Below, piece after piece: positions 49,733 to 49,856 of a stretch of 64,000 nt of DNA. The first letter of the stretch is position 1. Every line of letters starts with the position of its first letter. A model generated the notes under the pieces. The model made no database searches and was not told the DNA's origin. It saw nothing but the letters and a program-made list of their open reading frames with translations. A program made the position numbers and the translations under genes. Origin of the DNA: Escherichia coli (GTDB lineage: Bacteria; Pseudomonadota; Gammaproteobacteria; Enterobacterales; Enterobacteriaceae); assembly GCF_003334785.1 (NCBI RefSeq), contig NZ_QOWV01000010.1; one strand, 5' to 3'.

Positions 49733-49796
49733 TCCGTACTGAACGGTCCCCTCGCCCCTTTGGGGAGAGGGTTAGGGTGAGGGGAACGTACGGGAT
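49733..49796. repeat. GC-rich nested palindrome (possibly boxC-family intergenic repeat)
   Basis: ccgtactgaacggtcccctcgcccctttggggagagggttagggtgaggggaacgtacgg: outer ccgtac/gtacgg and inner C-tract/G-tract dyads. Confidence 0.5.
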
Positions 49797-49817
49797 GTAA
49801 AATTCAACGCGCCAGCA

Positions 49818-49856
49818 TCGCCGGATGCGATGCTGGCGCATCTTATCCGGCCTACG
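49818..49856. repeat. REP element
   Basis: gccggatgcgatgctggcgcatcttatccggcctac. Confidence 0.8.

Follow-up and report, generated by a model that had tools for sequence, protein, structure and literature searches.

The GC-rich nested palindrome between the convergent genes yhfS and frlR is no. 15 among the 23 BoxC copies of Escherichia coli K-12, and we consider it very probable that it is a tolerated, dispersed intergenic repeat with no demonstrated regulatory function, whose effect is to supply homology for rearrangements. Its recognition is correct but not new: the palindrome is an already catalogued BoxC copy beside an ordinary REP, and the element, this particular copy, the multistable folding and the variable surroundings have all been published. 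The sole increment is a base-resolved BoxC-BoxC recombinant in O157:H7, a concrete case of the recombination between distant copies that Holder et al. raised only "in principle" (PMC4666352).

We analyzed a 64,000-nucleotide stretch of E. coli DNA (the window), the + strand of which corresponds to E. coli K-12 at about 3.505 Mb in reverse complement. A preliminary description, made from the sequence alone, had placed the element between convergent yhfS and frlR genes, and the RefSeq annotation of K-12 bears this out. The two stop codons bound a 151-bp convergent spacer that holds BoxC and the REP, with nothing annotated inside it in the RefSeq K-12 annotation. BoxC is therefore intergenic in K-12 RefSeq rather than part of an annotated gene, and no annotated feature underlies this copy in the genomes listed in our E. 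coli genome search. The unit begins 28 nt past the yhfS stop; on the other side, the longest mechanical open reading frame of frlR extends to 50655. A paper on riboswitch entropy (PMC4448311) was set aside as irrelevant, yhfS and frlR being there mere operon labels for distant windows. The genes and the parts of the BoxC copy are:

48621-49706, + strand: yhfS coding sequence, the convergent gene upstream of BoxC, with its stop at 49706
49734-49793, + strand: the whole BoxC unit of this allele, a 60-bp nested imperfect palindrome
49734-49739, + strand: left outer arm ccgtac, allele-specific
49748-49758, + strand: C-tract cccctcgcccc, its central G (49754) being the variable base of the family
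49749-49784, + strand: 36-nt core CCCTCGCCCCTTTGGGGAGAGGGTTAGGGTGAGGGG, TMECO no. 15 (type A, one mismatched triplet) and HPGQ no. 38
49762-49771, + strand: G-tract 1, ggggagaggg, pairing with the C-tract with one G.A mismatch
49762-49784, + strand: four G-runs, GGGG-AGA-GGG-TTA-GGG-TGA-GGGG, a canonical G-quadruplex motif read from the sequence
49775-49784, + strand: G-tract 2, gggtgagggg, pairing with the C-tract with one G.T wobble and favored in this copy
49788-49793, + strand: right outer arm gtacgg, which is gtgcgg in O157:H7
49858-50589, - strand: frlR coding sequence, 732 bp in the K-12 annotation, with its stop at 49858

A repeat search of the window recovers the nested inverted repeat of BoxC, and the outer arms, the C-tract and the two G-tracts all lie where the preliminary description had put them; since every feature that it stated is found in the spacer, the description is accurate. 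Absent from it were the four catalog names of the element, the G-quadruplex motif, the mirror repeat suited to triplex formation that the two G-tracts together also constitute, and the allele-specificity of the arms. In the triplex model of PMC4666352, G-tract 1 is the Watson-Crick partner and G-tract 2 the third strand. The BoxC palindrome exceeds chance expectation: its 24-nt core is matched once in the window, where 0.00 matches would be expected from shuffles.

Membership of the boxC class, previously a guess, is established because the element matches the family consensus, is identical in its core to catalogued copy no. 15, and is one of a multi-copy set of which all 23 K-12 copies are recovered. 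The family goes by four names: BoxC, PIT (potential intrastrand triplex) element, TMECO and the HPG1 G-quadruplex group. Its consensus, CCCTCNCCC-N3-6-GGGNGAGGG-N3-GGGNGAGGG (Holder et al. 2015, PMC4666352), is matched exactly by a regular expression at 49749-49783. The 36-nt core is letter-for-letter TMECO no. 15, which Table 1 of the same paper gives as 3,504,892-3,504,857, antisense, type A, with one mismatched triplet; the coordinates agree with NC_000913.3. Table S2 of PMC4666352 puts copy no. 15 at 73 nt from frlR and 41 nt from yhfS, and we count 73 nt and 42 nt, respectively. The negative-control oligonucleotide of that study is the same 36-mer carrying four G-to-C changes. In the other naming study, the element appears as HPGQ no. 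38 of group HPG1, with frlR at 74 nt, midpoint 3504863, and yhfS (Kaplan et al. 2016, PMC5100583), so that TMECO no. 15 and HPGQ 38 are entries for the same copy. The HPG1 consensus dGGGAGAGGGTTAGGGTGAGGG, ahead of which lies a conserved C-rich tract (PMC5100583), occurs exactly at 49763-49783, and the C-tract of our copy ends 3 nt before G-tract 1. The copy downstream of fabI (no. 9, fabI-ycjD) is 35/36 identical to the window copy in its core and shares the flanks ACGGTC and GAA with it. The fabI gene, formerly envM, is said to be the locus from which BoxC was first described, by Bergler et al. in 1992.

Taking the K-12 copies from published coordinates, locus by locus, we recovered all 23 and found that conservation continues into their aligned flanks (...ACGGTC before the core and GAAC... 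after it). In the type A copies, which have TTA as the second loop, an alignment in register reads ...G(C/T)GCAC-N-GGACGGTC on the left of the core and GAAC/GAAA...GCAC on its right; the type B copies have TTTTCT or TTTCC ahead of the core. Because of these shared flanks, the homologous unit spans ~58-64 bp, in agreement with the BLAST results, in which megablast partial matches of other loci (query 87-144) mark ~49736-49793 as the portion common to paralogous copies. The window copy is like the rest of the BoxC/PIT/TMECO/HPG1 family in its core, type A loop, mismatched triplet, intergenic site and flanks (ACGGTC / GAAC), and differs from it only at the level of the allele, in its perfect 6-bp arms ccgtac/gtacgg. 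When the 16-nt flanks of all 23 K-12 copies are shuffled, the family mean z for outer-flank pairing is -0.2, and the window copy is the only one of the 23 with significant flank pairing (z -2.83, 2/200 shuffles). In other alleles of the locus the left arm reads CGCTCGG (in O157:H7, CGCTCGG...GTGCGG) or GCGCCGG (strain GF43). Only the K-12-type allele has 6-bp outer arms that are perfectly complementary; outer-arm pairing was dropped as a feature of the family, flank shuffling being significant for the window copy alone. Rfam has no family matching BoxC, its only hits in our search being weak ones to naRNA4 on the REP and chance miRNA-level matches. Two type B copies sit in the cryptic prophage CP4-6 region (K-12 282,101 and 289,246), and the published tables score both as absent from 52/56 strains.

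The C-tract can pair with either G-tract, as had been proposed from the sequence. With DNA parameters, pairing with G-tract 2 yields a long hairpin that contains the G.T wobble and extends into the arms (-16.8 kcal/mol, G-tract 1 blocked), and pairing with G-tract 1 a short hairpin with the G.A mismatch (-12.9 kcal/mol, G-tract 2 blocked). Both folds are feasible in silico, and the two constrained energies thus make the claim of alternative hairpins quantitatively sound. As DNA, the 60-nt element folds at -16.0 kcal/mol on the + strand (z -3.7 against shuffles) and at -13.0 kcal/mol on the - strand (z -2.4). In RNA structure prediction, a check that had been suggested, the 64-nt stretch likewise folds better than shuffles, at -31.5 kcal/mol (z -2.5) on the + strand and -27.3 kcal/mol (z -3.1) on the - strand. 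The purine-motif triplex (C-tract : G-tract 1 * G-tract 2) and the quadruplex lie outside what nearest-neighbor folding models. Both of these structures are on record: the triplex was observed by CD and NMR on type A and type B single-strand oligonucleotides, with a polymerase stop at the motif (PMC4666352), and the G-quadruplex and hairpin switch with the cation, as seen by CD, in a competition that also includes the duplex (PMC5100583). In published in vitro work, adding the complementary strand gives an ordinary duplex, and the published in vivo DMS footprint was negative, with no protection and no stable non-B structure detected. The alternative hairpins are essentially this published hairpin/triplex/G-quadruplex multistability. 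Mechanistically, whenever the G-rich strand is single-stranded, the C-tract would pair with either G-tract, with the long G-tract 2 hairpin favored in this copy. The short G-tract 1 hairpin could take G-tract 2 as a third strand and so form a purine-motif triplex, and the four G-runs would provide a quadruplex alternative; with the complement present, the ordinary duplex should win.

The preferred partner of the C-tract follows its variable base. In constrained folds of the 23 K-12 copies, which comprise 15 with G and 8 with T, a G goes with G-tract 2 in 14/15 copies and a T favors G-tract 1 in 7/8. Unconstrained minimum-energy folds are less tidy, in that G-tract 2 is the partner of the C-tract in only 10/15 G-type copies; the T-type copies that prefer G-tract 1 under constraint do pair with it (7/7). 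The family extends well beyond E. coli, its published distribution covering >260 genomes. Among the matches listed in our search, Mitsuaria chitosanitabida (Burkholderiales) has >150 copies, many in inverted pairs, and Candidatus Contendobacter and an unclassified MAG also carry BoxC blocks. The three nine-base blocks of Mitsuaria are the same as those of E. coli; its first loop (GCTTGC) and its flanks (TCTTCGGG) differ. Among the Mitsuaria copies listed, the C-tract base is T in 86 and G in 72, the G-tract 1 base is A in 157/158, and the C-tract base shows no association with the G-tract 2 base. Because the same G/T dimorphism and an invariant G-tract 1 occur in both E. coli and a distant betaproteobacterium, one could conceive of BoxC as a selected two-state single-strand element, in which the G or T of the C-tract sets the paired G-tract and frees the other one for a triplex, a quadruplex or recognition by a single-strand DNA enzyme spreading BoxC. 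We hold this to be very unlikely. The shared dimorphism would be unexpected for decaying neutral DNA, and the conservation of the nine-base blocks in distant bacteria, which speaks against a neutral relic, hints at possible selection or a mobilizing system.

The copy count that the preliminary description had suggested reveals an element that is far from unique. With a 73-bp query, BoxC is found in 5426/5426 complete E. coli genomes, with 17 places in the median genome and 28 at most, and across these genomes 80776 places are chromosomal versus 37 on plasmids. Such numbers bear directly on the notion of a locus-specific regulatory site, for example an FrlR operator or a small-RNA gene. A regulator gene does adjoin the element, and the complementarity of the arms in this allele is unusual (z -2.83). 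However, the same sequence recurs ~17 times per genome at unrelated loci, lies here downstream of both genes, lacks an Rfam match and a convincing promoter, and has arms that vary among alleles of the locus. A local regulatory role is effectively refuted by copy number, and we regard it as extremely improbable.

In K-12, the 23 consensus matches fall at 18 loci, 8 of them convergent, 8 co-directional and only 2 divergent. All but two (16/18) are downstream of at least one gene, with BoxC in mixed orientation relative to the upstream gene. As judged from the sequence, this bias is the pattern that would be expected of a repeat tolerated where no promoter is disrupted, and in the present spacer BoxC may be tolerated because no promoter lies between two converging 3' ends. 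It would also be compatible with a role at mRNA 3' ends. The adjoining structures of the spacer are:

49809-49839, - strand: perfect 13-bp stem (49809-49821 / 49827-49839) with a 5-nt loop, overlapping the REP and having GUUGAAUUUUA next on the - strand
49820-49855, + strand: REP GCCGGATGCGATGCTGGCGCATCTTATCCGGCCTAC (GCCGGATGCG...CTTATCCGGCCTAC), found by pattern match, an imperfect palindrome

The REP conforms to the consensus GCC(G/T)GATGCG ... CTTATC(C/A)GGCCTAC over 49820-49855 and is extragenic and multi-copy, with paralogous matches at other loci at 97.6% identity. It is one of four full REPs that a pattern search finds in the window, and naRNA4, a REP-derived RNA, matches it weakly (31.7 bits, below the Rfam gathering score). 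The preliminary description was right about a canonical REP; its spacing of 20 bp is approximate, the REP beginning 26 nt past the right arm and the overlapping 13-bp palindrome 15 nt past it. The 13-bp stem overlaps the 5' half of the REP and resembles a fusion of a partial, inverted REP with the full one. A terminator scan finds a sole site near BoxC, at 49820-49805 on the - strand, where a 6-pair sub-stem of the 13-bp hairpin is followed by AATTTTACAT. The 13-bp hairpin, at ~-28 kcal/mol as RNA, is likely the terminator of the frl operon, rather than BoxC. In BoxC itself the scan detects no site on either strand and no U-run follows the hairpin, which thus does not qualify as an intrinsic terminator. 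Adjacency to a REP was dropped as a rule for BoxC, REP-like half motifs occurring within about 200 bp at only 3/16 other K-12 loci. BoxC is like REPs and BIMEs in being dispersed, intergenic, palindromic and 3'-biased, but its sequence is unrelated to theirs, and in E. coli REPs greatly outnumber the 23 BoxC copies. REPs have RAYT transposases, gyrase and Pol I as partners and a role in mRNA stabilization; we know of no such partner for BoxC.

The preference for 3' gaps could also reflect an RNA 3'-end function such as mRNA stabilization. BoxC would then act as an RNA 3' stem-loop that protects the yhfS mRNA from 3'-to-5' exonucleases or insulates the convergent units. The + strand RNA is indeed well folded, at -31.5 kcal/mol over 64 nt and -73.3 kcal/mol (z -5.3) over the whole spacer, BoxC begins 28 nt past the yhfS stop, and closeness to 3' ends, which holds in K-12 for the 16/18 loci downstream of a gene, 8/18 of them convergent, was also remarked by Kaplan et al. 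(PMC5100583). Against these points, BoxC has no U-tract and is negative in the scan, published tests found neither promoter nor terminator activity, it occurs in either orientation to the upstream gene, and two loci are in divergent promoter regions. We judge a function of this kind unlikely, and keep to a tolerated repeat that acts chiefly through its homology.

The locus is polymorphic. The K-12 arrangement at yhfS-frlR is kept in only 2862/5426 genomes, in agreement with Table S3 of Holder et al., in which copy 15 is unchanged in 28/56 and the region is missing in the remainder (PMC4666352). In 1400 genomes, a 5.2-kb block, BoxC-REP-frlRDCBA (window 49708-54949), is absent and yhfS joins yhfL via 29 unrelated bases; neither a BoxC nor a repeat is seen at the far breakpoint of this indel. 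Some ~87 genomes (an estimate, 2949 minus 2862) have a 52-bp deletion removing most of BoxC. In strain GF43, where the deletion falls within the counterpart of window 49740-49810, the left arm is kept and no obvious microhomology or repeat is found at the ends. The yhfS-frlR region of this strain shares 90.9% identity with the window, an unusually high divergence within E. coli. A third variant is that of O157:H7, where trpS is joined to BoxC-REP-frlR, and it involves two stretches of the window:

42014-49742, no strand assigned: segment absent from O157:H7-type genomes, 7.7 kb with a BIME, yhfZ...yhfS and 36 bp, its right end inside BoxC
49743-49785, + strand: 43 bp identical to the BoxC copy found after trpS in many strains (ACGGTC + core + A), containing the O157:H7 crossover interval

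The key to this arrangement is NCTC9064, in which BoxC is present as two direct copies, the first 13 nt past trpS and the second past yhfS. The single copy of O157:H7 is a hybrid of these, with the left flank of the trpS-side copy and the right flank of the yhfS-side copy. The hybrid junction occurs in 342 genomes (40/40 listed match at 100%, and most of them are named O157 or O157:H7), and the trpS-side copy in 1525 genomes, counted irrespective of the yhfS-side copy; 1525 + 342 matches the 1866 genomes with any trpS-BoxC junction. At the sequence level, a hybrid copy together with the missing 7.7 kb is what recombination between two direct BoxC copies would leave behind. The arrangement is most economically read as the result of a deletion, in which BoxC-BoxC recombination removed the 7.7-kb php-yhf cluster from the O157:H7 lineage; the direction rests on the distribution, and the formal alternative is a Campbell-type insertion through the same 43-bp homology. 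In a literature search of incomplete coverage, we found no paper describing this event. Beside the BoxC-mediated deletion, frlD is annotated as a pseudogene, with an internal stop, in O157:H7 strain TX 376-2.

The variants of this locus bear on the proposal of Holder et al. that the non-B structures of BoxC, whether triplex or G-quadruplex, stall replication and lead to breaks, slippage and error-prone repair (PMC4666352). In favor of such structure-induced instability are the in vitro triplex and polymerase stop, the greater variability of the surroundings compared with control intergenic sites, the loss of the K-12 arrangement in all but 2862/5426 genomes, and the 52-bp deletion of GF43 without an obvious end repeat. 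Conversely, the in vivo DMS footprint is negative, the duplex wins in vitro once the complement is present, the frl-operon indel has no BoxC at its other end, and the O157:H7 crossover falls within a perfectly identical 43-bp stretch, the outcome predicted by plain homologous recombination. BoxC resembles the mirror repeats that form H-DNA or G-quadruplexes in having a homopurine-rich mirror repeat with a C-tract, in forming a triplex or quadruplex in vitro, and in its variable surroundings; it differs from them in lacking a stable non-B structure in vivo, and the rearrangement that can be dissected needs only homology. On balance we treat structure-driven instability as a possible but doubtful account of this locus. 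From a single recombination event it does not follow that the variability which Holder et al. reported across the family is due to homology and not to non-B structure, and most of the variant alleles that we examined are sequence replacements, not BoxC-BoxC events. Returning to BoxC as a source of homology, its main effect would be that of a 43-bp portable homology patch, possibly also a replication obstacle, that promotes rearrangements. Such a patch would account for at least some of the reported instability in a simple way, with no recourse to exotic DNA structures, and the strains with two copies are an experimental system in which the effects of homology and structure could be separated.

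A different source of variation would be BoxC itself, were it a non-autonomous mobile element, MITE- or REPIN-like and still inserted by some transposase, with the window copy as a discrete insertion. The multiple, palindromic and very similar copies, lineage-specific bursts such as the >150 copies among the matches listed in one Mitsuaria genome, and the frequent inverted pairs of type A and type B, which recall REP doublets, would fit such an origin. BoxC also shares with the bacterial MITEs (ERIC/IRU, RSA, RUP and Correia) the properties of being short, non-coding, multi-copy, hairpin-forming and intergenic. It departs from them in having no terminal inverted repeats that match a known IS and, at the loci examined, no target-site duplication or clean empty site. 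Empty sites and target-site duplications, the hallmarks of a MITE, were sought at adk-hemH, zntA-tusA, trpS-yhfZ and yhfS-frlR, and none was found. At adk-hemH the non-BoxC allele has 157 bp replaced by an unrelated 53 bp, at zntA-tusA it is a BIME that is inserted, adjoining an intact BoxC, and the three alleles of trpS-yhfZ show no clean insertion and no duplicated target bases. At adk-hemH, trpS-yhfZ and yhfS-frlR the other alleles are deletions or replacements, with the whole spacer exchanged instead of filled and empty sites alternating; moreover, the loci are orthologous across strains and almost none are on plasmids. Since neither a clean empty site nor a target duplication was found at the loci examined, the mobile-insertion reading is unsupported; nothing supports recent transposition of BoxC in E. 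coli, and we rate active mobility as distinctly unlikely.

The trpS-yhfZ spacer (window 42046-42118) brings BoxC and the REP-based repeats together, in that it holds a BoxC allele or a BIME allele at the same place, strain by strain. Its three alleles are the BIME of the window and K-12, the BoxC of the 1525 genomes, and a short form with neither, with the trpS terminator hairpin AAACCGGGGAAACCCGGTTTTTTT as the common end of all three. Elsewhere in the window, a BIME spanning 6673-6759 is made up of inverted REPs at 6673-6709 (+) and 6726-6759 (-). In strain FY10, the zntA-tusA spacer has a three-REP BIME directly beside a BoxC that stands alone in K-12.
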